A stretch of 25,562 nucleotides of DNA. It comes from Candidatus Helarchaeota archaeon. GTDB lineage: Archaea > Asgardarchaeota > Lokiarchaeia > Helarchaeales > RDOG01. Each line of letters begins with the position of its first letter. The first letter of the stretch is position 1. A model generated the notes under the pieces. That model was not told the DNA's origin. It worked only from the letters and a program-made list of their open reading frames with translations, and made no database searches. The position numbers and the translations under genes are program-made. The stretch lies in contig JALGVI010000078.1 of the NCBI GenBank assembly GCA_029838215.1, positions 1 through 25,562 of the forward strand. Direction: 5' to 3'. Of this stretch, positions 4,068-23,431 are shown piece by piece.

Positions 4068-5048
4068 TCAAACAAATCGAGAAATGCTTGTTTGCACCAC
4101 GTGAAAGTTTTTTGCCGCTTTTCGAAGCCGTTTCAACCCATTTTCCAGTCGACTTTTGCTGAAACGTTTTCCGATGAAATGTGCCACTGCATTCAGGTTT
4201 GGATGATGAAACAATGGCGTGAATTTCATGGTTATGGGATGCAAGAAATAATTACGGATGCGTGCCGGATTCCACTCGATTTCCAGTCTTTTGGCAGCAA
4301 GGAAGTTTTCGATTGTTCCATGAGTTTGAATGGCTTTAAGTCCTTTTTTTGGACCAATTCCCTTGATTCCCGGATTGAAATCCGTGCCTATTAGCAAAGC
4401 AATATCTATGAGTTGTTCTTGCGTGATTTCGTGCCGTTTTAATGTTTCTTTCAATCCGTAATATTTGAACGTGTTCGTGTTAAAATTAAACTCGCGGATC
4501 ATGTAATGTGAGCCGAACAGGAGTGAGTCGTGATCTTGGCTTAGTGTTGCACGGGCTTTTTTTTCGATGACGAGTCTGGCACACTGGGCTTCTGCGTCGG
4601 ACGGAGCGCGACATACGGCGATTCCCATTGTCTTCAATAATTCGATGGTCTCAACTATGATGTAATTAAACGTGAAAGATAAGTCCTTGAAGAGTTCTCG
4701 TCCTTTCTTCACGTTTCCCTTTGTCGTATAGAAATAATGCCATTTCCAAGTATTTACTAATCGTTCGATCTTCCATGACGGTGTTACCCTTTTTTCTCTT
4801 ATTGGCATTCCATCAAATACCATGATTGGCTGGACATGATTTTCCAGACTATTTATGATGAAATAGAAAATCCCGAAAAGGTGAGAGACCGGGCGTCCCT
4901 CCTTATCTTTAAGCATTCTGTCTTGCTTGCGGATTTTTGTCAAGTATTTAAAAATTAAATTCGTTCCATCCACGGCGATTCTCGATCTTGCAATGTCATC
5001 AAAATCTCTTTCATGAATGTTCAATAATGGTTCGAGATTGCATCCCAT
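4068..5048 (-). CDS. fen: Flap endonuclease 1 (FEN1/XPG family), divergent, with C-terminal PIP box
   Basis: IAVDGTN, SHLFGIFY, VFDG, APSDAEAQCA, SQDHDSLLFG, GTDFNPGIKGIGPKKG (H2TH); terminal QTSISRFV resembles a PCNA-interacting motif. Confidence 0.92.
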   Translation of the reverse strand: MGCNLEPLLNIHERDFDDIARSRIAVDGTNLIFKYLTKIRKQDRMLKDKEGRPVSHLFGIFYFIINSLENHVQPIMVFDGMPIREKRVTPSWKIERLVNTWKWHYFYTTKGNVKKGRELFKDLSFTFNYIIVETIELLKTMGIAVCRAPSDAEAQCARLVIEKKARATLSQDHDSLLFGSHYMIREFNFNTNTFKYYGLKETLKRHEITQEQLIDIALLIGTDFNPGIKGIGPKKGLKAIQTHGTIENFLAAKRLEIEWNPARIRNYFLHPITMKFTPLFHHPNLNAVAHFIGKRFSKSRLENGLKRLRKAAKNFHVVQTSISRFV

Positions 5049-5063
5049 GGAAGAACATCGCCG

Positions 5064-5534
5064 TCATTCAATGAGTTTTCGTTTGAATTGAACATTCGCA
5101 AAGAAACTAGTCATGATGTGATTAATTCTATGAAGGAGAAAACCTGTTAAATCCGCCACGGTCAGCACGTAATGGCGAATCTCTTGCAAATCACGCACGA
5201 GAATGAATTCCATGAAGAATCCTTTTTTAGAAAGATTGAAAGTGGTGGACGGTGGTAAAAATGGTGAAATAAAACGCTTGAATGTTTTTGCTTGAAGATA
5301 AACCTTCTTATTGTCATTCCTGAATTCTTCTTCTCCAATCAACTCAATATTCAGATAGATGAGTTCTTCGAAAAGTGCTCGACAGATCTCTACGGTTCCG
5401 ATAATCACTTGATCTCTCGAGCGAATCACGTGTGCCAGTTCAAGCAAGTCAACGTGGCTATCTTCTTCTATCCATCGAAGTTCAAACTGTTTTTGGTTCA
5501 CGTCATTACAAGCGATCGGTAAAAAAACGGTCAT
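5064..5534 (-). CDS. Hypothetical soluble protein (~156 aa)
   Basis: ORF track gives 5064..5546, but GGAGG sits 5 nt before the ATG at 5534, so that start is preferred. Operonic position between the 321-aa gene and fen. No recognised motif. Confidence 0.7.
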   Translation of the reverse strand: MTVFLPIACNDVNQKQFELRWIEEDSHVDLLELAHVIRSRDQVIIGTVEICRALFEELIYLNIELIGEEEFRNDNKKVYLQAKTFKRFISPFLPPSTTFNLSKKGFFMEFILVRDLQEIRHYVLTVADLTGFLLHRINHIMTSFFANVQFKRKLIE

Positions 5535-6471
5535 CACCACCTCCACATGCTCGAAGCTGCACGTAATTTAGTAATTCGCGTCGTTTCAATCTTCTAATCT
5601 TTAGGTGTGAATAAATCCCTTGCAACTGCGCCTGCAAAACTTCTGCTTGGAAAGATACACGCTCCCATGTTTTCGTGAGATTTTTTGCATTAAGATTAAA
5701 CCAAGTGGGGCTCGTCGCAAAGGTCGTTATTAACAAACGTCCTGTTCTTAATTTTGTCAAACCGTGTTCTTCTGCACCAACCGTTCCTGTTTCAGAATCA
5801 CCTTCGTCGTCGATTGGAGACACTATTACATGATATGCAAAGGGAATGCGCGTGCTATCAAGAGTCTTGATGAATTGGAAAATTGGTGATTCATCCGACT
5901 GATTTTTTGGCACCACGTGAAGCGGGATTTCATGAATCTCTAATGTACATTCTGCGTGTAAGCGAGAATCTGACCGATAGAATAGTACTGATGATGATGA
6001 GTGTTGAGAAACGTGAGGTGGATGCCAAAAAAAATATTTAACGTTCGTCATTGGTGGAAGGATTTCCAAATCCTTCCATGGAAATAATTTTAACATTAAT
6101 AAAGAGCGATTTCGGGGGAAGAGGATGATGATGTAGCAGAAGACCGTGACAATAAAAGCCCCGATTCCCAATGAAATTCCCAAGAACATGTTGATTATTG
6201 AAGCCACACCGAAAATGATTAAGAATGACAGAATGGAAGCACCAATAATGAAAAAGAGTATAAATGTGGATAAAAAAGTGCTTTGTCTTGCTTGACTCTG
6301 GTTTAAATGGAAGTGTTTAAAGCTTCTAAATGATGTTTGAGCCCAGATATCAAGATTCATACTCCTACGAAATAAACTGAACGCTGAAACCGCAGAATGC
6401 GCCACGGATTCATCCGCAATATTATGACTTGGTGGAAATTCATCAATATTAGCATCTGTATCGTGCGACAT
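5506..6471 (-). CDS. Membrane protein: two TM helices followed by a soluble alpha/beta domain
   Basis: Hydrophobic stretches at ~aa 65-118; AGGTGA before the ATG; 7-bp gap from the upstream gene. Confidence 0.8.
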   Translation of the reverse strand: MSHDTDANIDEFPPSHNIADESVAHSAVSAFSLFRRSMNLDIWAQTSFRSFKHFHLNQSQARQSTFLSTFILFFIIGASILSFLIIFGVASIINMFLGISLGIGAFIVTVFCYIIILFPRNRSLLMLKLFPWKDLEILPPMTNVKYFFWHPPHVSQHSSSSVLFYRSDSRLHAECTLEIHEIPLHVVPKNQSDESPIFQFIKTLDSTRIPFAYHVIVSPIDDEGDSETGTVGAEEHGLTKLRTGRLLITTFATSPTWFNLNAKNLTKTWERVSFQAEVLQAQLQGIYSHLKIRRLKRRELLNYVQLRACGGGDDRFFTDRL

Positions 6472-6478
6472 GACATGT

Positions 6479-6967
6479 TCACCTACCTTTAAAGAGATTT
6501 AGGAGACCTAACCCCACGTATAATCCAAAATAAACCACCCATGTGATGTTTCCAATGTAGTAATATGGATTGAGAAAAAGTGGAAGTAGCATGAACACGG
6601 TCAAGAAGAGCCAAATTAATGTCCATGCTAAAAAAGCATATCGAATAAGAGAATATTGCTTCAGGACTGTAATTAATGCTTTAATGCGCGTAGAGCTTGA
6701 TTTTGCCTTCGGGATGGCGTAATGCCATCGCAGTTGTTCGATTTCATTAATGAATTGTAGCGTTTTTCTATCGATGTTTTGTGTTGAAAGTGTAGTTCTT
6801 TTTTGAACTACTTGAGCTGGAAATTCTCTTTTTTCTTTAAGATTAGATGAGAAAACATCACGCTTGCCCAAGCAATTTCGGATTGTCATGATTCCGATGA
6901 TGACCAATAGAATAATGGGCCACGTTGCTACGAGAAATGCAAAAATGATTATAAATGACTCGCCCAT
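6479..6967 (-). CDS. Membrane protein (162 aa, ~3 TM helices)
   Basis: One N-terminal hydrophobic helix and two C-terminal ones; GAGGT upstream; 9-bp gap from the upstream gene. Confidence 0.8.
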   Translation of the reverse strand: MGESFIIIFAFLVATWPIILLVIIGIMTIRNCLGKRDVFSSNLKEKREFPAQVVQKRTTLSTQNIDRKTLQFINEIEQLRWHYAIPKAKSSSTRIKALITVLKQYSLIRYAFLAWTLIWLFLTVFMLLPLFLNPYYYIGNITWVVYFGLYVGLGLLNLFKGR

Positions 6968-6976
6968 CTAAATACC

Positions 6977-7261
6977 TCAAGGAAAGTTCGTAAAGAACCA
7001 GAAGATTCCATAAAAGACCGAAAATACTGGGACAAAATCACCGAATAACCAAGCATAAACGAACCAGTTCATGCCGAGAAGGATTAGAAATGATGGTAAT
7101 GATCTGAAAGCGCGCCAGTTTCCATGTCCGATAGCAGAATAAGCCGCAACGAAGAACCCCACTATGAGTCCGATATTCACCAGAAACACGCAAAACATGG
7201 ACCAGAAATAGAATCTAAATAAGAAATCGTTCAAGAGTCCAAACAGATCTATCATGACCAT
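6977..7261 (-). CDS. Small hydrophobic protein (94 aa), helix-basic loop-helix, pilin-like architecture
   Basis: Two hydrophobic segments separated by HGNWRAFRS; GGACGTGA SD-like sequence upstream; first gene of a five-gene operon. Confidence 0.75.
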   Translation of the reverse strand: MVMIDLFGLLNDFLFRFYFWSMFCVFLVNIGLIVGFFVAAYSAIGHGNWRAFRSLPSFLILLGMNWFVYAWLFGDFVPVFSVFYGIFWFFTNFP

Positions 7262-7290: not shown

Positions 7291-7313
7291 GGGTAAAATG
7301 TGATGTTAATAAA
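7291..7313 (-). promoter_or_regulatory. Promoter with shared motif: TTTATTAA-catcaca-TTTTACCC
   Basis: TATA-like 8-mer, 7-nt spacer, TTTTACCC; 29 nt before the 94-aa gene; same geometry at three other promoters. Confidence 0.7.
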
Positions 7314-7371
7314 GGTTGTGGTCGATAATGTAGGCTTTCCGATGGTTAAATTGGGGATGAGAATGACAAGA

Positions 7372-9600
7372 TCAAGCAAGTGGAATTCCAATTAGGCGTT
7401 TTAATTCGAATAGTAATGTATTACTTTCGGTTTTTGCAGTTTCCTGTTGTAATTCGTTAGCAAATTGTGAGATGCAATCAAGTGACCAGACGCTATAATT
7501 TAAAAACTCCTCTAAATCTCCTTGCCCAATACGCACGTCCACGCTTACCTCTTTAATACGCTGGTAATAGTTTGGTATAGTGGATTGTAAGAAAGCACTG
7601 ATACCATTTACGAACCTATCTTCCCACGTGATTTTCTTTGATTCCTGAACATAAAGCCTTGCCATGAATTCAATGAGAGCGTGTTCCGTTGTTAAAAATG
7701 GGAGATTTTTAATAATAAAAGTAGCACTGCTTGGAGTAAGATATGATTCCACGACAATTCTACCCAAATCTGTACACTTGTACTTTCCATCAAGTGTTCG
7801 TATTAAAAATAAATCTGCCATTAAGGAATTTAGAACGAATTCCTTGTTTAATGCTTGAGTTAAGATTACAGATGTCAGCGTTGCGTTTTGTCGGAATCCT
7901 TCTAGTGCCAGACGAATTAGGTGAGGGCAGAATATCGTGCCTTCGCGTCCTATTCGGAAATCCGCACACGAACATGATATGTGGTCCCTATGAATGACCG
8001 CAGTATTGATCGTGGGATCTCGAAAGATGCCTTTAATAGAAGTCCTATCAAAAAAGAAATCCACGATTTCATCTTTTGAATAATTTTCTGCACGAGTGAA
8101 AAAATGGGGATGTGAAAACTTCCGGATTGTTTTATTTAAAGAGACCGTGCTGAGCTCAAGGAACTCACTTACTGATGCATCGGGATATCTTGCTGAGAGT
8201 TCATGCCACCATAACGTTTGCTCAAAAACATTTTCGATCTCTTCCTTAGTCAATGCACCATTATCATGAACGTGGACCAAGATTTGTTCTTTCAGAACCT
8301 CTAGATTGTTAAATTTACTCGTTATGTTGTTATATTTTGGCTCAAAGTGGTTATTGACCTTGCGGAAAAATAACTGAATGACTTGATGTTTTTCCTCCGT
8401 ATTCCGAACCAGAACGGTCCCCACACAATGACCACTTGAATATTGAGGGCGTCCCGCACGACCGATAATTTGATGAAAGAGATTTGGTTCAAGCTCACGA
8501 GTGGAAAGAGCTAATGGAATGATGGTTCTGGTTTGTGGTGTTGTTTCATAGGTGGGAACGCGGATTTCAACATCCTTGATTATGACAGATCGCACGGGCG
8601 TGTTGATTCCTGCTGCCAGCGTGGATGTACAGGTAATGATCTTTATTGGATGCTTGCGAATGGCCTCTTCAATGAGTTGTCGAGACCTTAATGAAAGTCC
8701 ACCATGATGGAATGCAACGCCTTTTGCAAGAAGTTCGAGAAGTTCTGGATCTATGCGATACTCAAGTAAAAAACGTGCGGGATCAAATGCACGTTGTAGC
8801 GTCAATTCTTCTTCAGGCGTGAGAAGCTGATGTCTCTCAATATATCGAGCCAACTTTTTTGCTATTGATTCTGTTTCGCGTCGGGTTTGCACGAATAGAA
8901 GGATGGGGTGGGCAAGCTCAAGCAGGAGCTCCTCGATCGCACGTTGTTTATTCGGTGTTTCGATTATGTTATATGCTATTGGTACGGGTCGATAAGAACT
9001 CTCAATGAGCGTGGCGTTCATCCAAGAGGCGATTTCACTTGCATTTGCAAGCGTTCCGGATAGTCCAAGAATTTGGGCAGAAGGAAACTTGGCACGGATG
9101 CGGGCGATCACGCTTTCAATCCTAGGACCGCGGCGTGGATCATTTATTATTTGAATCTCATCCATTACAAAAACCTGAATATCTTTCAACCAAGGTGCTT
9201 TTTGACGTAGATACGTGTCAAAGCGTTCGTATGTCATTATGAGATAATCATTCTTTTCAATGTCCTTTTTATCGATAGTGAAGTCTCCCGTCGAAATCCC
9301 AATTTTTAGCCCTTCACCCCGTAACTCTTTCGTAAATGCCTCATATTTTTCATTTGCAAGTGCTTTAAGCGGTACCAAATAGACTACTTTTTTGCCTTTA
9401 TTGAAGAGTTGCCGAAGACATGCAACCTCACCAATGAGTGTTTTACCTGAGCCTGATGGTGAAGAAATCAGGAGATTTTTTCCATCTAAAAGTCCACTTA
9501 AAAGTGCTTCACATTGCACGGTATTAAAATACGTGATGAGCTTGCGTGATAAATATTGCTTTAGCCTATTCGAAATCGGGAAGTCATTCACTGCTTTCAT
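7372..9600 (-). CDS. hel308: Ski2-like SF2 helicase, Hel308/Hjm-like, with inserted SWIM zinc finger
   Basis: Q motif TVQCEA, Walker A SPSGSGKT, VPLKALANEK, TGD, DEIQ, RGPRIE, AFHHGGL, TLAAGINTP, motif VI QIIGRAGRP; CSC-x12-CPH at 7921-7974. Confidence 0.88.
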   Translation of the reverse strand: MKAVNDFPISNRLKQYLSRKLITYFNTVQCEALLSGLLDGKNLLISSPSGSGKTLIGEVACLRQLFNKGKKVVYLVPLKALANEKYEAFTKELRGEGLKIGISTGDFTIDKKDIEKNDYLIMTYERFDTYLRQKAPWLKDIQVFVMDEIQIINDPRRGPRIESVIARIRAKFPSAQILGLSGTLANASEIASWMNATLIESSYRPVPIAYNIIETPNKQRAIEELLLELAHPILLFVQTRRETESIAKKLARYIERHQLLTPEEELTLQRAFDPARFLLEYRIDPELLELLAKGVAFHHGGLSLRSRQLIEEAIRKHPIKIITCTSTLAAGINTPVRSVIIKDVEIRVPTYETTPQTRTIIPLALSTRELEPNLFHQIIGRAGRPQYSSGHCVGTVLVRNTEEKHQVIQLFFRKVNNHFEPKYNNITSKFNNLEVLKEQILVHVHDNGALTKEEIENVFEQTLWWHELSARYPDASVSEFLELSTVSLNKTIRKFSHPHFFTRAENYSKDEIVDFFFDRTSIKGIFRDPTINTAVIHRDHISCSCADFRIGREGTIFCPHLIRLALEGFRQNATLTSVILTQALNKEFVLNSLMADLFLIRTLDGKYKCTDLGRIVVESYLTPSSATFIIKNLPFLTTEHALIEFMARLYVQESKKITWEDRFVNGISAFLQSTIPNYYQRIKEVSVDVRIGQGDLEEFLNYSVWSLDCISQFANELQQETAKTESNTLLFELKRLIGIPLA

Positions 9601-9677
9601 TCAATTGCCCCAATCTATGGTGATTAAAGGATTGCAAGGATAAGTTTTTAAAGTCAAATATTGACCTTAAAAAAATT

Positions 9678-10028
9678 ATGTTGAATCAAATTTTTGGAAA
9701 ATCGCTATTGGGAACGGCTTCGTATCGTTTTAATCATCGGCACGTTTACGTCCGAGAGCGATACGCGTGGAAAGAACAACAATACTTCGTTCCTGAAGAA
9801 AAGCACGCAAAAATTCTCACCTATATCGAACGAGAACTTAAGTATCAACTCACGCAAGATATATTCCTAAAAGACGATAGTTTCGTCCAAGTGATTTACC
9901 AAGACAATTATCTAAAATTGAGGTTTGGCACAAAAGCTCCTGAAAATCTGGCATCAATCGAAGCTGCCTTAGAACGATTCTTGAACATTCCCACCCTTCA
10001 TGCCATTAACAAAGCGAAAATTGATTAA
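9678..10028 (+). CDS. Hypothetical protein (116 aa)
   Basis: ATG-started ORF divergent from the helicase, followed by T-runs; no recognised motif. Confidence 0.65.
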   Translation: MLNQIFGKSLLGTASYRFNHRHVYVRERYAWKEQQYFVPEEKHAKILTYIERELKYQLTQDIFLKDDSFVQVIYQDNYLKLRFGTKAPENLASIEAALERFLNIPTLHAINKAKID

Positions 10029-10042
10029 CCACTGGATAAATC

Positions 10043-10062
10043 TTTTTTTTTCATTTTTTTTT
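10043..10062 (+). terminator. Oligo-T archaeal terminator candidate
   Basis: Two T9 runs (10043-10051, 10054-10062) starting 14 nt after the stop of the 116-aa gene. Confidence 0.5.
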
Positions 10063-10548
10063 AGTTTAGAATAATTTTTTGAAAATGCCTCCTTCCATTC
10101 ATGAGCATTTCTATTGGGAATTCATTTTAACGATCAAGGTAATTCACGAAAAAAATGAACGCTTGTAGAGCTTGTTGAGGAAGGACTGTAAAGAATGACA
10201 AGCGAGCAAACATGATCAAGACGGATATTTTAAAACATTTTAGAAAATAAGCAAGGTCATTCGTTCAAATCTCATCACCTGCTCCATCCTGATGCTCATT
10301 TTAGAGGAAACTTCGAAAAAAGATACGCTCGAGCAAAACTAAAACCAAGATCCCAATTTCTCTGAATGGAATGATCGTGATTAAAAAAAAATTTTGACTT
10401 CAGTTCTGGTTGAGGAAGACCTCTCATAACATTTTTACGAGATTTGTGATGTATTGGTGAAAAAGACAAGCGTTTTTGGAAAATGGGCGGGGTTATTTTT
10501 TGGTGTTTTTTTTTCGATCAATATGGGAAAATATCATTTCGATTAGAT

Positions 10549-10557
10549 AAAAAAAAA
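10549..10557 (-). terminator. Oligo-T archaeal terminator candidate
   Basis: T9 on the minus strand immediately after the TAA of the 471-aa gene. Confidence 0.45.
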
Positions 10558-11973
10558 TTATAGATAATGATCTGGGACGGGAAATGGTAAGTAGTTTAGA
10601 ATTGCAATGGAATTTGCCAGTTCTGGTTTGATGAATTCTCGTTGGAGACAACGCGGGAGTTTCTTGCTCGGCATCACTGTTAATTCTCCTTGTACCAGAC
10701 TTTTTAATACTCGCGCTTCGTGATGTGCTCCCATAAAAAATCCTTCGACATCCCATAATCCTATGGTGGCTTTTTCAGAGAATTCATTTAATTCCCGAAC
10801 GGCCTGTTCAAACTCATCCATCTGATCATGAAATACCCTGTGTAGAAGCGGGTTGCGCTCTCTTCCGAGCAGCTGTTCACCAAAAGCGGACTTTAGAACA
10901 TCGTAATTTTTATCTGTCATTTCTTCGGAGAGTTGATTTGCCATGATTAGAACTCGCTTTTCGAGCTTTCGACTTCTTCGGTTCAAATCATCCTCATCCA
11001 AAATTCGTGCGTGAAATATCAAGGCAAAATCTTCAAAAGCCAACGGATTCTCGTATATTTTAGTGAGAAATTCTGAGAGACAATTTTTTAACTGCGAGAT
11101 CTTGTACAACTTGAATGCACGTGTCCTTGCCCCTTGAGATACCCAGATACTTTCATCATGTTGGAGAGATGGTGGTTTAAACCAATCATATTCCATGAAT
11201 GGAAGTCGCAAGATCTTTTCTTGAATGAGCTCGGAACGAACAATTTCGTGTTTGATTCGGAACTGACGCATGTAATCGGATAGTGCATTTAATGCGATCG
11301 TGAGATTTTGAATGACTTCCGCCTGACGGACATCTCTCTCGACAATACCAACATAAAGATGAACTTTGTCCTGTTGCTTCTGGACTTCAAATGTTAATTC
11401 CGTGAATACTGGGTCCGATACCACGAGTTGGATTACCTTTTCAAATGTAACCCTTGGATCATGGATGCAAATCCACTTAATTGCGTGCCAAAGATCGTCA
11501 TGCTTGAATAGAAGCGTTTTTGTTAGCTCTTCAAATGCCGCAGGGCGATAGGAGAATTCTGTCCGAAGCTCTGAAGAAAGTACGTGGAAGGATAATAAAA
11601 AGGATTTTAGCCCAATTTTATGGTAAATCGCCAGGAAAAAAGTGCCAAAATATGCCAATAAAACGACTGGGACAAGCAGCGGATGCACGTGAAAACTGAA
11701 TCCACTCAGCACGATACCAAGATGAATAATACAAGCCAGCAAGAAAATTTTTATTAAATCCTTGAGCCACGGTCGTTCGTTTCCGAGATTTGTCATCCAT
11801 CCAAAGAAAATGCAAATCCCCGAGACAATTCCCCAGAAAGCAAGAAGAAACAATACGGCGATAGGATCACCGAGCACGCATGCAAAGAAGGAAAATAATG
11901 TAACTGATGAGATGGTATAACATATAAGCATCAAAAGTGTTACGATCACGATTATAGTCATCAAAATTGTCAT
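10558..11973 (-). CDS. Membrane protein (471 aa): ~4 N-terminal TM helices plus a large soluble region with two apparent alpha/beta repeats
   Basis: Hydrophobic aa 1-130; amphipathic strand/helix alternation and a charged helical insertion afterwards; starts 2 bp after the radB-like stop. Confidence 0.85.
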   Translation of the reverse strand: MTILMTIIVIVTLLMLICYTISSVTLFSFFACVLGDPIAVLFLLAFWGIVSGICIFFGWMTNLGNERPWLKDLIKIFLLACIIHLGIVLSGFSFHVHPLLVPVVLLAYFGTFFLAIYHKIGLKSFLLSFHVLSSELRTEFSYRPAAFEELTKTLLFKHDDLWHAIKWICIHDPRVTFEKVIQLVVSDPVFTELTFEVQKQQDKVHLYVGIVERDVRQAEVIQNLTIALNALSDYMRQFRIKHEIVRSELIQEKILRLPFMEYDWFKPPSLQHDESIWVSQGARTRAFKLYKISQLKNCLSEFLTKIYENPLAFEDFALIFHARILDEDDLNRRSRKLEKRVLIMANQLSEEMTDKNYDVLKSAFGEQLLGRERNPLLHRVFHDQMDEFEQAVRELNEFSEKATIGLWDVEGFFMGAHHEARVLKSLVQGELTVMPSKKLPRCLQREFIKPELANSIAILNYLPFPVPDHYL

Positions 11974-11975
11974 TT

Positions 11976-12653
11976 TTAAATCACCTCAAATCCACGATCT
12001 GTCATTCGAAATCCTAATTCCGAAATTTCTGTTCCCCCTGAAGCACGCAGAGTCATCTTGCGAAATGGGGATCCATTAGGATCGCCGAACTCTTCTATCA
12101 AGATATGTATCTGGCAGGTCAAATCACATTCCGTTTGTGTTATGGGACGAAATCGTCTTGACGTAAAATCTGCCGTGATTTGATTCGTAAGAATTACTGC
12201 AAATCGACGCTTTCCATTGCGAAACATGCGCACCAATCGTTGAAGATAACGATCAAAGAGAATCTTTTGAAATTCGTGCCGCTGTCGCCGATCACAAAGC
12301 CGATAGAAATAAGTGAAGTTGTCCAAGATGATGAGGCGTGTAGTTGCATGCACGCAGTGTTCGATATTTGTAAAAATATATTGAAAATGATTCCAATCTC
12401 TGATGCGAACGAGTGAAAAATAGTCCCAATCTCGGGTGTTTGCCATTCGCTCTAGTTTTCGAAGGGAAAATGAGTTGTTACAATCAATCCACAATACATC
12501 GTGTTTCTCCTTGAGCAATTTTGCCGCAACCTGTAAGCAAAAAATTGTTTTTCCCGTGCCCGGTTCGCCATATACGTGAGTGATTTGACATAACGGGATG
12601 CCTCCATTGAGCACCTCATTGAGCGTGGGCAAGGGTGTTACTAGAGTCATCAC
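11976..12653 (-). CDS. radB: RadB-like / RadA-paralog RecA-fold ATPase without N-terminal domain
   Basis: LNGGIP, Walker A GEPGTGKT, IDCNNSF, Walker B LIILDN, VILTNQ. GTG start overlaps the upstream TGA (GTGA). Orthology to true RadB is uncertain because there is no KHR motif. Confidence 0.8.
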   Translation of the reverse strand: MMTLVTPLPTLNEVLNGGIPLCQITHVYGEPGTGKTIFCLQVAAKLLKEKHDVLWIDCNNSFSLRKLERMANTRDWDYFSLVRIRDWNHFQYIFTNIEHCVHATTRLIILDNFTYFYRLCDRRQRHEFQKILFDRYLQRLVRMFRNGKRRFAVILTNQITADFTSRRFRPITQTECDLTCQIHILIEEFGDPNGSPFRKMTLRASGGTEISELGFRMTDRGFEVI

Positions 12654-12874
12654 TCACTTGTCACCTTACCGAAATGGAATTCCCGCGATCCACTCGTTCG
12701 TTTTTGTTGCTGAATATAAGACGTGGCTTCTGTTGCTGTTTCAAAAACCGCAATGACGATGAACTTGCCTTTAGCTTGACAGTGAGGACACGTGGGTTTC
12801 TTGACTGAAGCGCGTTTCAGGGTTAATGTCGAACATTCTTCACATTTTACGACCTTATAATTCTTCAATGTCAT
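12650..12874 (-). CDS. Small zinc-ribbon protein (DUF1922-like)
   Basis: CEEC...CPHC followed by a short helix (EATSYIQQQK), the layout of small archaeal Zn-ribbon proteins. Confidence 0.8.
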   Translation of the reverse strand: MTLKNYKVVKCEECSTLTLKRASVKKPTCPHCQAKGKFIVIAVFETATEATSYIQQQKRTSGSREFHFGKVTSE

Positions 12875-12883
12875 GAAAATGGC

Positions 12884-12906
12884 TGGTAAAAAAGAGTGTT
12901 TAAAAA
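12884..12906 (-). promoter_or_regulatory. Promoter with shared motif: TTTTTAAA-cactctt-TTTTACCA
   Basis: Same TATA-N7-TTTTACC geometry; ATG follows 9 nt later, consistent with a near-leaderless mRNA. Confidence 0.7.
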
Positions 12907-12966
12907 TTTATTGCTTACAAGAAAAGGAACGAAATTCCAAAATGAAGCCAAAAAGGGTGAGGTTGT

Positions 12967-13602
12967 TTAAAGTTGGCTCTCAATAATACGTATTTTTTTC
13001 AAGAACGTTCGCGTGATTAAAACAATTACGACCAGGACTATCATGATTGCAACAATGATACTTACTAAGATTTCCCATGAATTCGTGAAGAAAACGCTGG
13101 TCATGTTATCATTGTATTGAAAGTTAAGGTTTGAGGATGATAGCTCCGTGATTTGCAGGGATGAAAGCAGAGATCCCTGAAAATCTGTTTCCGTAATTTT
13201 TACTAATATCATAACACAGTCTACATGATGTCCCAAAACAAAAACTGACTTATAACCCGCAAAATTGCAACCCAAATCGGTACTTCCGTGCTTGATAATT
13301 TGATAGTCTTGGATATCTGTGATGTAGAACGTGCAATGCGTTCCATCAACATTCATTCGAGTCAAAAGTTGAACTTGTTGATGTTCGTGACGCTTTTCTG
13401 CTTCGGAAGAAAATAGAAACGTGAGAATATCGGTAGAAATACTTTCGACTTCTAAATACATTTTATCAACCACTCGTGGAACGGGGTCCTGGTAAGTCTG
13501 CGTGATGACTTGATATTCTAAGTAATCACCAATTTCGAATGGACTTTCGCACGTTCGTGCGTGAATAACTGGAAAAAAAATCACGCTCAAACTGGTCATC
13601 AA
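12967..13602 (-). CDS. Exported protein with C-terminal TM anchor; true start probably upstream (13647 or 13656)
   Basis: C-terminal ILVSIIVAIMIVLVVIVLI followed by a basic tail; beta-rich body (FEIGDYLEYQV); in-frame upstream codons form a signal peptide (see findings). Confidence 0.75.
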   Translation of the reverse strand: MMTSLSVIFFPVIHARTCESPFEIGDYLEYQVITQTYQDPVPRVVDKMYLEVESISTDILTFLFSSEAEKRHEHQQVQLLTRMNVDGTHCTFYITDIQDYQIIKHGSTDLGCNFAGYKSVFVLGHHVDCVMILVKITETDFQGSLLSSLQITELSSSNLNFQYNDNMTSVFFTNSWEILVSIIVAIMIVLVVIVLITRTFLKKIRIIESQL

Positions 13603-13652
13603 AAAAAAAGGAAGAATTAAAAGGAGAACAGACGTTCTTCGAGAAATTTAAA

Positions 13653-14834
13653 TCAACTCTTCTGCTTGTTTTTTTTAGTTTTGGCTTTTTTGGTTGTTGA
13701 TGTTTGATTTTTTTCCTTAGAAAGTGTTTCCACTTCAGTTGCTTCGGTTGCTTGTTCGATCACATTTGTTTCTTTAACCTTGCTATCTCTTTTTTTATTG
13801 TTTTTTTTTGCTTGTTTGGCATGCCATTCGGGACTCTTGTCAATATCTGCATTATATTGATCGCATTCGACCGTGTTGATGAATCCTGCACCCACGAGTT
13901 CTAAAAATATTTCTTCATTTGCCAAGTCTACGGCTTTTTCTATCTTGATCTTTTTAACCCTTTTAGAGCGTGGGGCGATCAGGATGCGTACTTGGCTTTC
14001 ATGTCCGACAGTATAACCCATTGAGTGCGTGTATTTTGATGAAAATGCCGTTGCATTTACATTTGCGGTAACTTGATTAGTCAAGACCGCAACTGCGTTG
14101 TAGTTTGTCGCTGCTTTTTTTAGAGCGTGGATGATGCGGTTTGCTTTTTGTTGCCTGATTGGAAACAGCTGTCTCTCCGAACCGTATTCTGCCCGAAAAT
14201 GCGTGGCTATTGAATCAAGCAGGATCAATCGTGCCCCTGTTTGTTCCATTATCTTGTTAAGACCTTCTTCTGCAACATATAAGAGATCATCTGTCGTGGC
14301 GGGATTGGCCCTTGCAACGGATTGCACTACTGTTTCATAATCTAATCCATAATATTCTGCCATTGTTTTAATTCGGCGAATGGAAAAAGCTCCTTCGCAA
14401 TCAAGGAATACCGTAGCAGGGCTTGCTAGCCCACCTTTTTCTTCAGGAAGCATGGACAGGCATATGAGTTGGTGGAGCAGGCTTGATTTTCCCGATCCTT
14501 GAGGGCCATAAAGTTCATAAACTTTTTGAGTTTCAAACCCCCCGCCCAATATGCGATCGAGGGGTGCTTGACCCGTTTTAATGAATTGCCGTCTTTTAAA
14601 TTGTTGTAAAAGTTGGTCGCCTGTTATAAAACCGAACATTCCCCCATTCATTTCATCCAAGCGGTTCTTTGCAGCCCTGATTAATTTTTTGGCGGCATCG
14701 GCACCATATCCTACTCCTTTCAGCGAATCTATAGACGTGGTTGCCAAGACTTGGATGTTCATTATGCCTGCATCCTTCAGTTTCTCGACCGTACTTGGTC
14801 CTACACCTTTCAAGTTATCTAATTCTAATGACAT
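13653..14834 (-). CDS. radA: RadA/Rad51-family recombinase, divergent, with ~74-aa Lys-rich C-terminal tail
   Basis: N-terminal HhH LKGVGPSTVEKLKDAG, polymerisation motif GFITG, Walker A GPQGSGKS, DCEGAF, LLDSIATHFRAEY, RQQK, TNQV; GAGGT upstream. Confidence 0.9.
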   Translation of the reverse strand: MSLELDNLKGVGPSTVEKLKDAGIMNIQVLATTSIDSLKGVGYGADAAKKLIRAAKNRLDEMNGGMFGFITGDQLLQQFKRRQFIKTGQAPLDRILGGGFETQKVYELYGPQGSGKSSLLHQLICLSMLPEEKGGLASPATVFLDCEGAFSIRRIKTMAEYYGLDYETVVQSVARANPATTDDLLYVAEEGLNKIMEQTGARLILLDSIATHFRAEYGSERQLFPIRQQKANRIIHALKKAATNYNAVAVLTNQVTANVNATAFSSKYTHSMGYTVGHESQVRILIAPRSKRVKKIKIEKAVDLANEEIFLELVGAGFINTVECDQYNADIDKSPEWHAKQAKKNNKKRDSKVKETNVIEQATEATEVETLSKEKNQTSTTKKAKTKKNKQKS

Positions 14835-14889
14835 GATACTACCTCTAAGATTAGGTGAATTTCTTAACTCTTTGAGATTTGAATTTGGG

Positions 14890-14912
14890 GGGTAAAATTT
14901 ACCCTTTTTAAA
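14890..14912 (-). promoter_or_regulatory. radA promoter with shared motif: TTTAAAAA-gggtaaa-TTTTACCC; includes inverted repeat GGGTAAA-A-TTTACCC (14890-14904)
   Basis: Read directly; the motif ends 55 nt before the radA ATG. Confidence 0.7.
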
Positions 14913-14973
14913 TATTGTGAATGAAAATTCTCGATTTTTGTTACCTGAAAAATTTGGATGCGATGACGTAATA

Positions 14974-14996
14974 CTTATAAAGGCTAGTTTTTACCC
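14974..14996 (+). promoter_or_regulatory. Promoter with shared motif: CTTATAAA-ggctagt-TTTTACCC
   Basis: Same geometry; 25 nt before the ATG of the 803-aa gene, with GGTGA in between. Confidence 0.7.
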
Positions 14997-15021: not shown

Positions 15022-17433
15022 ATGATGTCGAAACGAGCAAAAAAACTCATTACATCCCTCTTGCTGGTGACTTTTATCGTCGTTTTTGGGATTTTAATTT
15101 ATCAAATTACTATTCCAGACATAACTGGGCACGTTAATAGGGATCAAAATGAGATACACGCTGCTGCTCAATCGTTTGATAGCTATTTTGAATTGTTTTA
15201 CCCAATGGAAATCAATGGGCAAACTAATATCGTGAATTGTGATGTTGAATTTCCCTATGCGTTTAAAATCGAAGAGAGCAACCTTGATGGAATATTTGCA
15301 AGCCTGACAATGAATCTAACGTTTGATGTTTCTTCTCTACCCATTCCCGAGACAAATTTAACAATCTTAAGGTTGGATTTTGAAACGAGATCTCGTACCA
15401 CATACAGTGATGACGTCAATTTTTCAAGATTACTCGTGAAAATATACAATGAATCTGATGGTGGATATTCGTTATTATCCAATCAGGTATGGGATCACTC
15501 CGTCATTCAATATTTTCTAGGTGATGGGACTGTTAATATTACCATTGACATCCCGAACTTTGTCATGAATGGTGAGGTAAAATTTCAATTAGTCCTCGAA
15601 CAATGGCTTCAAATTCCCCATTCAAATTATGATTTGCGCTTCTACCTTTATTATTGCTCATTGATCTTGGGACAAAACATTGAATTTGTCCCTTATCATC
15701 CTATTTCTGCTGAGATCGTGGAATATAATTCAAGATATGAACTCACCGGTTCACTTGAAGATTTAAAAATGGAAGATAATCAGACTTTTAATCTTGAAAT
15801 TTACCCCACGTTGCAGGACACATTGGAAATCGTTGAGATGGACTTGACGTTCAACGTGAATGGGTGTCAGTATGATGAGATTTTTGGTGTAATAATAGAA
15901 CACGATGATTTCTTTGAAATCAGTCTGTCTAATTCATACTATTACTTACCCCGTTTATACTTGCAGGATAAAACCACTCAAACTTTTAATTATTTTACAA
16001 ATTCTCGTGTTAAATCATCTGAAAACACGAGTCATTGCATTTTCGTTAGTGGAAATCAGTGGGTTGATGAAGATGGATTATTAACCATCCGTTATAGATT
16101 AGAATTAAACGACCATGAAGGGTTTAATCCCGCATATTATCGTTTTGATCAATCTGTAATCTATATAATTCGCCGTAACTTACCACTCGTTAATGTAAAT
16201 GTACCATCTGTAGGGTATGTATTTGAAAATCTCACGATTAGTATCGAATCAATTTCGTTTAATGGTATTTACTTCCATCCTATTTCTTCAATAATTTTTG
16301 ATTTTGGAACGTGGCAAGAAACGTATGACGTGCAAGATGGATTAAATGAAATTAACATGACTCGCAATGTTGCATGCTCCGAGAATTTTGATTTAATCAT
16401 ATATTATGATTCAAATGAATCATTTTTCGTTCAGGGTCATTATAATATTGAATTTCGGAAGATTGACGTGGAAATAACCACATCAGAACCCCTAGTTGTC
16501 CCGTTTAAAATAACCGGCTCCGTGATTTTAACTCGACTCGATTCTGGCATCCCTATTCCAAATAAAACTTTTAATTTTCTTGTTTATCATGGATATAATC
16601 CAACACCTGATTACATGACCACTGAAACCACGGATGCGCAAGGAGGCTTTAATTATACCTATTATATTGATCCTTTACGCTATCTGGATGAGTATTATAG
16701 GATTACGATCGAGGTCGAGCAGGATGATGTCTATAATTACAACATAGAAACTATTGGTGTTATTTGTAGCGAGGCTCCTGCAAACATCACGTTATTCTCA
16801 CTAACTCCTATTAAAAACGATGGATATGCAGGCGATACTATAGAAATCGAATACATGATCGATTGCTTAGTTCCGTTATATCAAGTGCAACTACTTCTTA
16901 ATGATACAGTACTGCATGTACTTTCATCAGCATTGGGAATAATTCGTTACAATTTTACGGGCGTGAAAGGTAATAATACCTATAGCATTCGAGTCATAAA
17001 TGACCGCATGCAAGTTTCACAGTCTAACTCGATTGAACTCAACTTACTGGCACGTTCCATCGATATAAGTTTAAACTCATGGCAACATCATGACGTGTTG
17101 GAGTTTTCATTAGTAATGACTGATGTTCTAACGGGATCATACTGTAATAATGCCCAAGTATTTGTCGAAATTCGTGATAACGGGCTTCTAGTTTTTTCGC
17201 GTGGATATTCTGCTGAAAATCCAATACATGACAGTTATAAGTTTGATTTCAGCACGGATCATTATTTTCAAATCCTAGTTTACGTCGAATCGGATGTTTA
17301 CACCATCGAAATGACGCACGCACAAGTATCCTACACCGCTTATCCATTTGTAGTCATCTTGACGGGTTTAATTACAATTCTTGGATCAAGCGGCGGAGGT
17401 GTAATGTTTTATTATAAAAAGAGGCGAACATGA
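15022..17433 (+). CDS. Large cell-surface protein (803 aa), N-terminal signal/anchor helix, beta-rich body, C-terminal TM
   Basis: KRAKK plus hydrophobic helix at the N-terminus; Ig/beta-sandwich-like strand patterns and many N-x-S/T sequons; YPFVVILTGLITILG...YYKKRRT at the C-terminus. Confidence 0.85.
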   Translation: MMSKRAKKLITSLLLVTFIVVFGILIYQITIPDITGHVNRDQNEIHAAAQSFDSYFELFYPMEINGQTNIVNCDVEFPYAFKIEESNLDGIFASLTMNLTFDVSSLPIPETNLTILRLDFETRSRTTYSDDVNFSRLLVKIYNESDGGYSLLSNQVWDHSVIQYFLGDGTVNITIDIPNFVMNGEVKFQLVLEQWLQIPHSNYDLRFYLYYCSLILGQNIEFVPYHPISAEIVEYNSRYELTGSLEDLKMEDNQTFNLEIYPTLQDTLEIVEMDLTFNVNGCQYDEIFGVIIEHDDFFEISLSNSYYYLPRLYLQDKTTQTFNYFTNSRVKSSENTSHCIFVSGNQWVDEDGLLTIRYRLELNDHEGFNPAYYRFDQSVIYIIRRNLPLVNVNVPSVGYVFENLTISIESISFNGIYFHPISSIIFDFGTWQETYDVQDGLNEINMTRNVACSENFDLIIYYDSNESFFVQGHYNIEFRKIDVEITTSEPLVVPFKITGSVILTRLDSGIPIPNKTFNFLVYHGYNPTPDYMTTETTDAQGGFNYTYYIDPLRYLDEYYRITIEVEQDDVYNYNIETIGVICSEAPANITLFSLTPIKNDGYAGDTIEIEYMIDCLVPLYQVQLLLNDTVLHVLSSALGIIRYNFTGVKGNNTYSIRVINDRMQVSQSNSIELNLLARSIDISLNSWQHHDVLEFSLVMTDVLTGSYCNNAQVFVEIRDNGLLVFSRGYSAENPIHDSYKFDFSTDHYFQILVYVESDVYTIEMTHAQVSYTAYPFVVILTGLITILGSSGGGVMFYYKKRRT

Positions 17434-18077
17434 TGAGTATTGAGTTAGATGGAATTGATGAAGGTTGGAGAGCCGAGAAAAAATCGGGTCGAAATTATAA
17501 AGGGCTATTGGTATTAACGAGTGGCATTTTGGTTGTCGTAATTTCAATAGCGATGGGCTTTATCTTTGCATTAAATCCTGCTTTTCAGATAACGCTTGTT
17601 GAGCTTATTTTTGCGGGCATTCAAACACTGGTTTTGGTATGTTTCGGTTTTTTAACCCTTGCACTCTTAATTGTAATGGTATTAATGAATGCAGATCTGG
17701 CACAAGGACGAGGGGCACTGAGAGCAACTCAATTTACACTCATAGCTGCGCTCATTGGTTTTATAATATATGATGTTTTCTTAAATGAAATCTTTGGTTT
17801 CCACGTGATGAGTATTTCAACAGGAAATTTGGTTTTTCCCTGGATCATATCCGTCATCCAAATCATCATATGGATTTCACTTATCTTATTGTTTCTCCTA
17901 CTTGCAATTCAAGTCACCTTAAAGGCTATAAGTATCGATAAATCCACGGGAATGACCTATAATCTCATTATCTGCGTGATGAGCATCGGGATCGTCTTCA
18001 TTCTAAACATCATTTATATTAACTACTACGGCGTGCCGATAATAATTCCTTTTAATCCTTCTGGGGTGATTCCGTGA
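17430..18077 (+). CDS. Polytopic membrane protein (215 aa, ~5 TM)
   Basis: Five long hydrophobic segments; ATGA overlap with the upstream gene. Confidence 0.85.
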   Translation: MMSIELDGIDEGWRAEKKSGRNYKGLLVLTSGILVVVISIAMGFIFALNPAFQITLVELIFAGIQTLVLVCFGFLTLALLIVMVLMNADLAQGRGALRATQFTLIAALIGFIIYDVFLNEIFGFHVMSISTGNLVFPWIISVIQIIIWISLILLFLLLAIQVTLKAISIDKSTGMTYNLIICVMSIGIVFILNIIYINYYGVPIIIPFNPSGVIP

Positions 18078-18328
18078 GCTGGATTTACATGCTTGATTTA
18101 TTCATGACTTTAACGCTATATTATGCGCGGGCAATTTTCCTCATGCTTGTATTTCTTCTATCTGTTTCGTATGCTTATGAAGGATTCAAGATCATTGCGG
18201 ATGTTAACCCCAAACTCGTGGGTAAGAGCGTGTTGTATAAACACCTGATTTCTCTTTTAATTCTCGTCTTCATCGATTTCATGTTTTGGCTAATCTTCAA
18301 AATTCCGCTTCACAGTTGGACAAGGTGA
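18074..18328 (+). CDS. Small two-helix membrane protein (84 aa), VirB2/TrbC-pilin-like architecture
   Basis: Hydrophobic helix, GFKIIADVNPKLVGKSVL loop, second hydrophobic helix; GTGA overlap with the upstream gene. Confidence 0.75.
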   Translation: MSWIYMLDLFMTLTLYYARAIFLMLVFLLSVSYAYEGFKIIADVNPKLVGKSVLYKHLISLLILVFIDFMFWLIFKIPLHSWTR

Positions 18329-18332
18329 TATA

Positions 18333-21300
18333 ATGACTGTATTGTTACAACAATTACTGGATGATATTCAAGAACAAGGTAACATTCATCATGCCTTTGA
18401 AAATCAAGCAACACGTATTTCACTTGTATATTCCCTGAAAAAACTTGAGCACTATTCTGTCTTTTGCATTTTCATCTTGAAAGATGCGGGGCACGTGGAA
18501 TCCCTTCATGATCGGAATGTACGGGAGATCATTAACGAAGTTGAACACGTAAAAAAACTTATCTTGGCTGGTGAAATTAGCGCTTTACGCCTTCCCGATA
18601 TTCCTAGATTTCAAGTCCGAACTCTTTCATTTTTCGATTTAAGAATTCATGATCGTCTTCGACTTCAACACGTTTCTTTAGAACATGATGGCAAACCCGT
18701 GTTAACTTTCATCTTTCCCGCCCTAATTACAAATGTCCCCAGCATTCATCGAACACTAGCGTGTGCCGAGTGCCGTTTAGATCTAGTTCCTGCTCCCTTG
18801 GTTTCGGAATTTATTCGAAACATGAATGCAGAAATCGTTGAAAAATCAGCCCACATTTATGATGCCTCTAAAGATCGACACGTACAATGGAATAATCGGG
18901 TTAATTTAGTCGGAATGATTCTGACTCTGGTATTTGCGGGATTCACGACACCACTAATGATCCTCGCCCCTTTTTTCAAGATGTCTCCTTTATTCTTCAT
19001 TGACTTGTATTGGATGTTGATTTCATTTGACGCTATTGGAATGATCGGCCATGCCATTTTGCGCCATAAAGCATATCTACGTGAAATCCTTGCAGAATGG
19101 AACCATCCGCAACTGTTCGACATTGCTAGGGGGTCTAACCCTCCTGAAAGACATGTCGAACCAAATATCGAAAAAACAGATCTCTCCGAAAACATTGTTG
19201 ACTACGGGCAAGTTCGGGATGAGATCGATGATTCGAAACGTAATATCCATCACGGATCATTAACCCGAACATCAAAAAGAAGTATTATCGTCCCAAAGAA
19301 AGCTAACACGATAAAAAAGCAGGAATCAACTCAAATTCATTGGCATGCTTTTACGGGGGAGTATTCTCTCATCCAAACAATCCGAAAGGAATACGAATCT
19401 GCGAAATCTGCTCAAGAAGAGAAAAAATTTCGCATTCATTTTCTCAATATAATACAGGGAACCGTGGCCTATAATTGGCTTCAACTCGGAAAGAAAATTC
19501 CAAAGTCCCGTAAGCTGGATCCCGTAGAAAATACATTAGACTCATTAGCGCGCTTGCAAGCACGTGGCATGAGCCATCCGTATAAAAGCCTGTTACAACA
19601 GTTCCTTGAAGTGCTGTCGCATAATCGAAGTCTATTTGCTGAAGAGATGCAAGTGATGCTTTCACGCCTTGAACAAATGCTTATTCGTTTAGGAGTTCTG
19701 GCGGGCAGGATCGAGAAACAAACACCGATTTCTCATGACGATGAGTCGTCTTTTCCATTAAATGAAGGAGTTATTAATGAAGACCTCACAAAAATTCCAG
19801 ATCTGCGTGTTCAGCGATATCTAAATAATAAACCAAAAACACGCTGTCGTAAAGAACAGATCGAGGATATGCTCATGCAGGCGAACCGCTACCTTCACGT
19901 AGGGGAAGACGATGCAATCAAGGATGTTCTAAAAGGATTTCCCGGTCTCCTATTCAAAGAAGTCTTGATAAATTCTGCTAACATTGAAGAAAATCGATGC
20001 CATACTTTTGAGCAAATTTTTAAGAAGAAGGGTGTAATGCTTACCGAACAACAACTCCTAAAATCAATATCAAGCATCAATAGTGCTTTATACGAATATC
20101 TGAAAGCGTTTTACAAAGATTTCCAAGAAATACAAGCCAAAAAAAAGGCACCTGGCGAAACTCTCTATAAAATCTGCCAACAAGCATGGAAAAAAATGAG
20201 CATGAATCTTTATGCTTCACCTGTTAAAGATGAATTCCCGATACGCAGCAATGAAATTGGAATGGAAGAAAAAACGCAAGAAGAAAAGAGACTCACGCCA
20301 ATCATTCCTGTCACCGATAAAGATATCATAAAAAATGAATTAAAAGGACAATTCATCGAAATAAAGACAATCGCCAAGTTAAATCTAGTTCTAAATGAGA
20401 CCAGTAAAGATTATCCCATATGTATTGTTTCATATAGATCAACATCCATGCCGCAATTCGTTGAATTACTGAAGATAAGAAAGGAATTTCGCGATTTGAT
20501 GTTTTATCTGTTAAACGTTGAGGAATTGAATGGAGACGATGATATATTTCAAGTCGTAGACTCTCCAAAAACCCTGCTCAAATATCGCACGCTCAAATAC
20601 ACTCATGAATACGTGGATTTTCAGGATTGTCATGATTTACTTAAGAAATTCATGCGTGAATTGAATGACTACAAGCATTCAAAACTTGTCAAGTCTGGCG
20701 TTCCTATTAATGGCAAATCCGGTCCGAAGGAAACAGACACAACCACGAATTCAATTGAAGAAATCTTTGATCCGAATTCTCCCGTCATTCATATCAAGGA
20801 TGAACGACCTTGGTTGCACCACATCAGACACAATACCAACCCTGTTTTCGTTTTACTTCATTCTGGCACGAACAACGCATATATCGAAGCATTGAACGCG
20901 ATAAAGACACTTGACATCCCAAATAATATCACGATCATTGAAGCCGACCAGCGTCTTGGATTCGTGCAAGAGACTTTTCCTGAAGAGGTCGACCTGGCAA
21001 TCTTAAAGCTGGATGGTGAAACCCGCGAAACCCTGAGTATAGATCAACTACGTGGAGCTCTCGAGATTAATGTTGATGCAGTTGGTACTAAAAAAACTCC
21101 GAAAAAAGAAGAAAATGAAGATGTCAAGAAGTTGGACGTCCTAAAATTCAAGAGGATTGTCGTAGACGGAACAAACGTCTTCAATTTCATAAAAAACGAC
21201 TTACAACAATTTGGCGAAATCGTGGATTTTAAGATTTTTCTGAAGTTACGGGAGTTGTTATACGATCTCGGATTCGAAGATGTTATCATTTACTTTGATT

Positions 21301-23425: not shown

Positions 23426-23431
23426 GTCATC

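Follow-up and report, generated by a model that had tools for sequence, protein, structure and literature searches.

A TTTyACC element at a fixed distance downstream of the TATA box marks a predicted small regulon of second-copy recombination genes and membrane proteins in Helarchaeota

In Sulfolobales, a DNA-damage promoter element, 5'-ANTTTC-3', is bound by Orc1-2, with TFB3 (PMC5817253, PMC6061795, PMC6101594). The motif marks 214 genes, and in this regulon the Ups pili and the Ced importer, which are turned on through the element and TFB3, are coupled to the DNA-damage response (PMC5817253, PMC6061795, PMC6101594). Here a different short promoter element, TATA-N7-TTTyACC, is described from a 25,562-nt stretch of DNA of a Candidatus Helarchaeota archaeon. 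This stretch, termed the window, is the entire contig C34 of the assembly of the genome studied (G000), a 3.62-Mb metagenome-assembled genome (MAG) of 170 contigs with an estimated contamination of 6%. It was compared with the genomes of relatives (G001, G002, G004 and G006) and with contig regions and metagenome contigs that carry L-numbers.

The Sulfolobales and Helarchaeota elements are alike in being short, non-palindromic promoter words of a limited archaeal regulon that were found by promoter alignment and are kept in related species. In both, membrane genes of the DNA-transfer type are coupled with a DNA-processing regulon; for Helarchaeota this is predicted from the gene content. They differ in that ANTTTC is an activating element at positions -39 to -44, upstream of the TFB recognition element (BRE), whereas TTTyACC follows the TATA box and occupies about -15 to -8. 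The Helarchaeota element marks about 5 units per genome, as against 214 genes, and belongs to Asgard archaea (Helarchaeota) and not to Thermoproteota. The Sulfolobales factor is known, but no cognate factor was found for TTTyACC.

Archaeal repressor operators can lie at or just downstream of the TATA box, e.g. those of MDR1, LrpA and Phr, and of TrmB at TGM sites. Characterised archaeal repressors act between the TATA box and the transcription start site (TSS) (PMC5817253, introduction). The present element resembles such operators in its location, at which repressors keep RNA polymerase from being recruited while TBP/TFB stay in place, and in that the site before the radA paralogue is palindromic. 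It is otherwise essentially asymmetric, stands at one invariant distance, and has no regulator gene nearby. A bacterial system is alike in outline. In streptococcal competence, sigma-X (ComX) reads the cin-box/com-box at -10, and one short word at about -10 switches on a membrane DNA-handling apparatus and dedicated recombination proteins as a block. This is, however, a sigma-factor system without homology to the present one, and DNA uptake in Helarchaeota is only conjectural. To our knowledge, next to nothing is known of how Asgard archaea regulate their genes. A literature search yielded nothing relevant on the motif, on Asgard promoter architecture, or on Asgard DNA-damage or DNA-exchange regulons.

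An earlier note on this DNA had listed four 23-mers with the form TATA-N7-TTTTACC(C/A). Their letters, coordinates and strands were all found to be correct, and the spacer is 7 nt in each. All four sites are intergenic, and downstream of each is a string of closely spaced genes, at whose first member the site is directed. The sites and the strings (putative operons) are as follows, with predicted transmembrane (TM) segments in brackets:

7291..7313, minus strand: promoter 1, TATA 8-mer at 7313-7306, 7-nt spacer, motif TTTTACCC at 7298-7291
4068..7261, minus strand: operon 1, genes for 94-aa (2 TM), 162-aa (3 TM), 321-aa (3 TM) and 160-aa proteins and a divergent FEN1
12884..12906, minus strand: promoter 2, TATA at 12906-12899, 7-nt spacer, motif TTTTACCA at 12891-12884
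10558..12874, minus strand: operon 2, genes for a 74-aa Zn-ribbon protein (DUF5817/DUF1922-like), a RadB-like ATPase and a 471-aa membrane protein
14890..14912, minus strand: promoter 3 (RadA paralogue), TATA at 14912-14905, spacer GGGTAAA, motif TTTTACCC
12967..14834, minus strand: operon 3, genes for a divergent RadA paralogue (393 aa, Lys-rich tail) and a 211-aa protein with C-terminal TM segments
14974..14996, plus strand: promoter 4, TATA at 14974-14981, 7-nt spacer, motif TTTTACCC at 14989-14996
15022..25417, plus strand: operon 4, genes for an 803-aa surface protein, 215-aa (7 TM) and 84-aa (2 TM) proteins, a 1354-aa membrane protein, a Rag-like GTPase and an XPD-type helicase

Promoter 1 is 29 nt from the ATG of the 94-aa gene. 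The open reading frames of operon 1 follow one another with junctions of 9 nt, 7 nt, an overlap and 15 nt, and its FEN1 is matched by Pfam XPG_I/XPG_N. At promoter 2 the ATG (position 12874) is 9 nt past the motif, and the mRNA is predicted to be leaderless. Promoters 3 and 4 stand back-to-back, the latter directed at an ATG at 15022. The open reading frames of operon 4 overlap or abut, with Pfam matches to Gtr1_RagA, DEAD_2 and Helicase_C_2.

The earlier note had proposed a genome-wide scan for the pattern. The strict form, [CT]TTWWWAA-N7-TTTTACC[CA], has five matches in 3.62 Mb. Four of the five are in this 7.7-kb stretch of the window, each before an operon start, and the fifth is antisense, inside an open reading frame. 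When the spacer is set to other lengths in the range 3–12, 0–2 matches are found for each length.

One explanation is that AT-rich intergenic DNA and a pattern chosen post hoc produced the four matches by coincidence. The pattern was indeed defined after the sites had been seen, and the bare 8-mer TTTTACCC is not enriched in the genome (132 occurrences, about 140 expected). A weight matrix was built without any G000 site, from 25 non-window sites of other genomes; these related sites are not statistically independent, above all in the G006-like clade, where the entire RadA promoter is conserved. Both strands of G000 (~7.2 million positions) were scanned with it. The four window sites rank 1 (promoter 3, score 27.6), 4 (promoter 4, 18.1), 6 (promoter 2, 17.8) and 25 (promoter 1, 14.9), and only 25 positions in the genome score as high as or higher than the weakest of them. 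An earlier matrix of 12 sites had placed the four at ranks 1, 4, 8 and 18. Five of the 25 best matches lie within 7.7 kb, where about 0.05 would be expected (a probability of the order of 1e-8 by our arithmetic). Together with the independent recurrence of the element at orthologous promoters (see below), the strict-pattern counts and matrix ranks refute coincidence, which has next to no chance of being correct.

The element also does not mark promoters in general. A relaxed pattern, YTTWWWWA-N7-YTTYACC, has 13 matches in G000, 7 of them intergenic and 4 in the window, and it is not commoner than its reversed control in any of the five genomes (G000 and the four relatives). Base frequencies downstream of the TATA box are flat, both in ~1250 TATA-like sites of upstream regions and in 154 promoters with leaderless geometry. 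The absence of a signal at ordinary promoters shows that the motif is not a general core-promoter element. The earlier note had named a lineage-wide core-promoter element as the finding that would overturn its proposal, and this is ruled out by the flat composition and by counts no greater than those of the control.

A fifth copy in the window was detected with the matrix (genome rank 11):

9645..9667, plus strand: probable fifth site, TATA, 7-nt spacer, ATTGACCT, 10 nt to the ATG of a 116-aa gene (leaderless)

The earlier note had described several promoters of the window as lacking the motif. This holds for the hydrolase and PolB/methyltransferase promoters, which have matrix scores below 0, but not for the 116-aa gene, with its TATA-N7-ATTGACCT. 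The G at motif position 4 of this site is also present in one orthologous RadA promoter (L071). The 116-aa gene probably belongs to the regulon as judged from its promoter. The site faces a minus-strand TATA directed at Hel308, and this minus-strand partner scores only 7.1. The intergenic region between Hel308 and the 116-aa gene (9645-9675) has two face-to-face TATA boxes around an inverted repeat, GTCAA-ATA-TTGAC. G006 has a comparable face-to-face pair of motif promoters (L040:4410-4464), with the membrane operon on one side and a 139-aa/Hel308 unit on the other.

A few other matches in the genomes were inspected. The site C1:2826 is 234 nt before an acyltransferase gene, and C12:18666 and C164:41784 have no gene downstream; all three were judged to be chance matches and not regulon members. 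C1:23328-23350 displays TATA-N7-TCTTACCG at the leaderless promoter of a 487-aa gene (matrix rank 5). The gene appears to encode a pyruvate kinase, as judged from its N-terminal sequence, and the site may be either a chance match or an outlying regulon member. At C52:22984-23005 (L039:2985-3006), TTTTACCC is separated from the TATA box by a 6-nt spacer; a MoxR-like AAA gene begins 117 nt further on, and after it come genes for two proteins of ~900 aa; orthologous support for this site was not found in the regions of the relatives that were examined. In G001, an identical 22-mer that fits the relaxed pattern is present at three places (C2:383755, C11:730067 and C11:843795) and is probably a repeated element and not a regulon site.

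The window RadA has orthologues with 44%–55% identity that are confined to a small clade. The four relatives share a syntenic neighborhood with genes for FEN1, RadA, XPD, Hel308, the RadB-like protein and two membrane proteins (162 aa and 321 aa); synteny of the 162-aa, 321-aa and FEN1 genes was seen in G001, G002 and G006. The element is found before the RadA orthologue in all four relatives (G001, G002, G004 and G006) and in eight metagenome contigs. Two additional contigs, L057 and L058, repeat the G004 and G002 RadA promoters. It is also present before the second RadA paralogue of G006, and before the Zn-ribbon/RadB-like unit in the same four genomes and in four metagenome contigs. The membrane-protein/FEN1 operon is preceded by the element in G002 and G006, as well as in metagenome contigs, and in G006 FEN1 and the 139-aa/Hel308 unit each have their own motif promoter. 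The motif is not present at the FEN1 and surface-protein operons of G001. Membership of the predicted regulon is thus wider, and more variable between genomes, than the earlier note stated.

An alignment of the sites gives the consensus TTTyACC, with variants TTTCACC, CTTTACC, ATTTACC and TCTCACC. In the 25 non-window sites the ACC triplet is nearly invariant (A 25/25, C 25/25, C 24/25), and both T's preceding the y position are present in 23/25 each. The spacer is 7 nt at 30/30 sites and the orientation is fixed. The flanking sequences cannot be aligned between families; the TATA box and the motif alone survive, at a protein identity of 45%, and this points to selection on the motif itself. 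Canonical radA genes, with 28%–33% identity, do not carry the element (0/9), nor is it present at the orthologue in a Sifarchaeum MAG (40% identical).

The proposal of a regulon is therefore borne out by comparison, in that the element is operon-specific, absent at ordinary promoters, and kept before orthologous genes in other Helarchaeota. These data indicate that the element is a genuine cis-regulatory signal, one that delimits a small regulon restricted to this locus.

Two further features of the RadA region are recorded here. Partial copies of the RadA promoter with the first RadA codons lie ~0.8–1.2 kb upstream of the real gene in G006 (L034:3200-3270) and in a metagenome contig (L050:3148-3200). 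A conserved protein of ~255 aa without a Pfam match is encoded between RadA and XPD in G002 (L036:10857-11630), G004 (L035:3203-4006) and G006 (L034:5734-6489). In these three genomes RadA, the ~255-aa gene and XPD appear to form a single unit driven by the RadA motif promoter; XPD of G000 instead terminates the surface-protein operon.

The position of the motif relative to the start of transcription can be deduced from the Zn-ribbon genes. In six of these (G000, G006, L048, L050, L055 and L073) the ATG is 9–10 nt past the motif. There is no room for a ribosome-binding site before the ATG, and the six genes are thus expected to be leaderless. The TATA 8-mer begins 32–33 nt before the ATG of the leaderless genes (the six Zn-ribbon genes and, likewise, the 116-aa gene), in agreement with the archaeal AT-rich 8-bp box centered ~26–27 bp upstream of the TSS. 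This geometry fixes the TATA assignment and places the motif at about -15 to -8, the position that the earlier note had assigned to it.

The motif location, between the TATA box and the TSS, matches that of repressor operators. The flanks upstream of the TATA box are A-rich, judged by eye, and a search for T-runs that end in C and replace the BRE gave 4 weak matches in G000 and none in the window. Symmetry was assessed by counting dyad matches. The mean is 2.4/7, compared with 1.9 for shuffled spacers, mostly from GG..CC; at the window RadA site it is 7/7, and positions 14904-14890 form a perfect 15-bp palindrome.

The explanation we favor, with a probability of roughly one half, is that a dedicated repressor reads the element and that the units of the island are held off until a signal arrives. 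The near-perfect TATA boxes and A-rich BRE positions would make the promoters intrinsically strong. A dedicated sequence-specific DNA-binding protein would occupy the motif, directly beside TBP/TFB, and would block either the recruitment of RNA polymerase or DNA opening. All units would be kept off until a signal releases the repressor; DNA damage or a DNA-exchange state are plausible signals. The element, how specific it is, its geometry, its retention at orthologous promoters and the genes that it precedes are observed; protein binding, repression and the nature of the signal are inferred. A repressor is favored because of the placement between TATA and TSS, the strong, canonical-looking TATA box, the palindromic RadA site, and the lack of TFB, TBP or TFE genes in the island.

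Several observations weigh against a repressor. Ordinary repressor operators are usually dyad-symmetric and variably positioned from promoter to promoter; here the spacing is exactly 7 at 30/30 sites and only one site is truly palindromic. No binding protein was identified, and Pfam/NCBIfam scans found no helix-turn-helix gene conserved in the island. Among the island proteins the Zn-ribbon protein alone is a small basic candidate, and neither in G002 nor in G004 was it found, though the motif persists there. In addition, the "genome-wide" background may be imperfect, because G000 is a MAG in 170 contigs and C34 is peripheral in it. C34 has rank 72/81 in tetranucleotide distance among contigs of at least 15 kb and a GC content of 40.0% (median 38.7%), and is thus somewhat peripheral in composition within the bin, though not an outlier.

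Other candidates for the trans-acting factor were considered. The small island proteins have no Pfam or NCBIfam match. The 116-aa protein and the 139-aa protein of G006 are unrelated to each other and were rejected as a shared regulator. A 526-aa protein of G006 and G001 has a weak, sub-threshold PadR-like stretch but is absent from G000, and the 160-aa protein was rejected as a counterpart of this protein or of a 199-aa protein of G006/G001, to which it is unrelated.

The invariant spacing, the weak dyad symmetry, the failure to find a regulator gene and the missing Zn-ribbon protein in G002/G004 favor an element that is read by the initiation machinery. The motif would then be a private core-promoter element, similar to a bacterial -10, that is read by an alternative initiation factor (a TFB paralogue, a TFE-like protein, or another protein associated with the preinitiation complex) as a positive, sigma-like switch. 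The fixed orientation is in accordance with this, as is the place of the element, at the upstream border of the DNA that melts in archaeal promoters. These genomes also have 3 to 9 TFB paralogues each. However, the island contains no TFB, TBP or TFE gene in the five genomes (G000, G001, G002, G004 and G006), nor does a TFB or TFE gene adjoin it. All PF00382 hits are outside; the nearest one in G001 is ~84 kb from the RadA orthologue. G000 has one very divergent TFB-like gene (G000:C23:36000-46000, L112), which encodes a 363-aa protein with a Zn-ribbon and one weak cyclin repeat. This gene is not linked to the island and there is no motif close to it; almost every one of the 41 class-level genomes has a conserved copy. 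The canonical-looking BRE and TATA box also mean that the general factors should already suffice, and sequence-specific reading of positions -15 to -8 by archaeal TFB/TFE is not an established mechanism. A switch of this type is less probable than a repressor, but it is a serious competitor. As a separate observation, the C23 gene adjoins secretion genes of the T2SSE/T2SSF type and a roadblock/longin/small-GTPase trio.

A third possibility is that the element is part of a promoter module inherited with the island, which would have reached its several units by descent and which, for example, tunes strength or opening for the general machinery with neither a dedicated regulator nor a coordinated switch. 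The nearly identical TATA 8-mer and motif across units would fit one ancestral promoter cassette. Within the G006-like clade the entire RadA promoter is conserved, including the duplicated promoter fragments. Against this, the four window promoters have spacers and flanks that bear no relation to one another, and the retention of TATA box and motif alone between families argues for selection on the motif. A general strength element would also be expected at other strong promoters, where it is not present. An inherited module is improbable.

The DNA enzymes of the window have a common property. PolB, FEN1, Hel308, RadA, the RadB-like gene and XPD of the window (within 1026-25417) are divergent second copies, with paralogues elsewhere at 26%–34% identity. 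The other, more canonical copies in G000 are on C11 (FEN1), C57 and C89 (Hel308), C122 and C131 (RadA), C111 (RadB), C88 (XPD) and C49 (PolB). The window RadA, RadB-like protein and FEN1 are all below the NCBIfam equivalog cut-offs. Every motif-bearing unit combines such an enzyme with membrane proteins.

The 471-aa membrane protein of operon 2 was analyzed by structure prediction (mean predicted local distance difference test score, pLDDT, 74.7). Residues 139–464 of the model match the TrwK/VirB4 N-terminal domain (chain residues 17–397; Foldseek E-value = 3e-8), and the VIA-align comparison with TrwK/VirB4 gives Z = 20.2 and a root mean square deviation of 3.6 A over 270 residues. The model thus indicates that the 471-aa protein has the VirB4 N-terminal-domain fold. 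It has no Walker A motif and no ATPase domain. The gene for the RadB-like P-loop ATPase, which does have a Walker A motif, is 2 nt upstream of the 471-aa gene, and the two proteins may together form a split motor. A word-index search for homologues of the 471-aa protein returned only the protein itself, and a full HMMER scan gave 4 proteins. For the island genes, PADLOC showed only generic helicase/ATPase similarities.

The presence of divergent second enzyme copies and membrane proteins in each unit suggests a spare recombination toolkit combined with surface proteins and with a membrane scaffold of the conjugation type. By gene content, the predicted regulon is a "second set" of recombination/repair paralogues (RadA, RadB-like, FEN1 and XPD) that appears to be co-transcribed with membrane and surface proteins.

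A more far-reaching interpretation joins these gene products to the fixed geometry of the promoters. The word would be an archaeal "-10-like" element, read at a fixed TATA distance by a dedicated initiation-stage factor, and would be the on-switch of an undescribed Asgard membrane DNA-handling machine. The proposed machine would consist of the VirB4-N-domain scaffold, with the RadB-like ATPase as a protein of its own, and of a nuclease, a Rag-like GTPase and surface proteins, and would feed DNA to its own RadA/FEN1/XPD set in a competence- or mating-like programme. We regard this interpretation as unlikely.

The element links what appeared to be an accidental neighborhood, i.e. second-copy RadA/RadB/FEN1/XPD, a VirB4-N-domain protein, surface proteins and a Rag-like GTPase, into a testable system. 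It is a sharply defined 23-bp probe with a clean control (an ACC mutant) and could help to pick out the factor from among recombinant candidates, and also to search sediment metatranscriptomes for co-expression. Archaeal regulatory sites do not usually keep so strictly to one place after the TATA box, and this bears on how archaeal and eukaryote-like initiation complexes gain promoter specificity. If the far-reaching interpretation were true, the closest prokaryotic relatives of eukaryotes would possess a programme akin to competence or mating.

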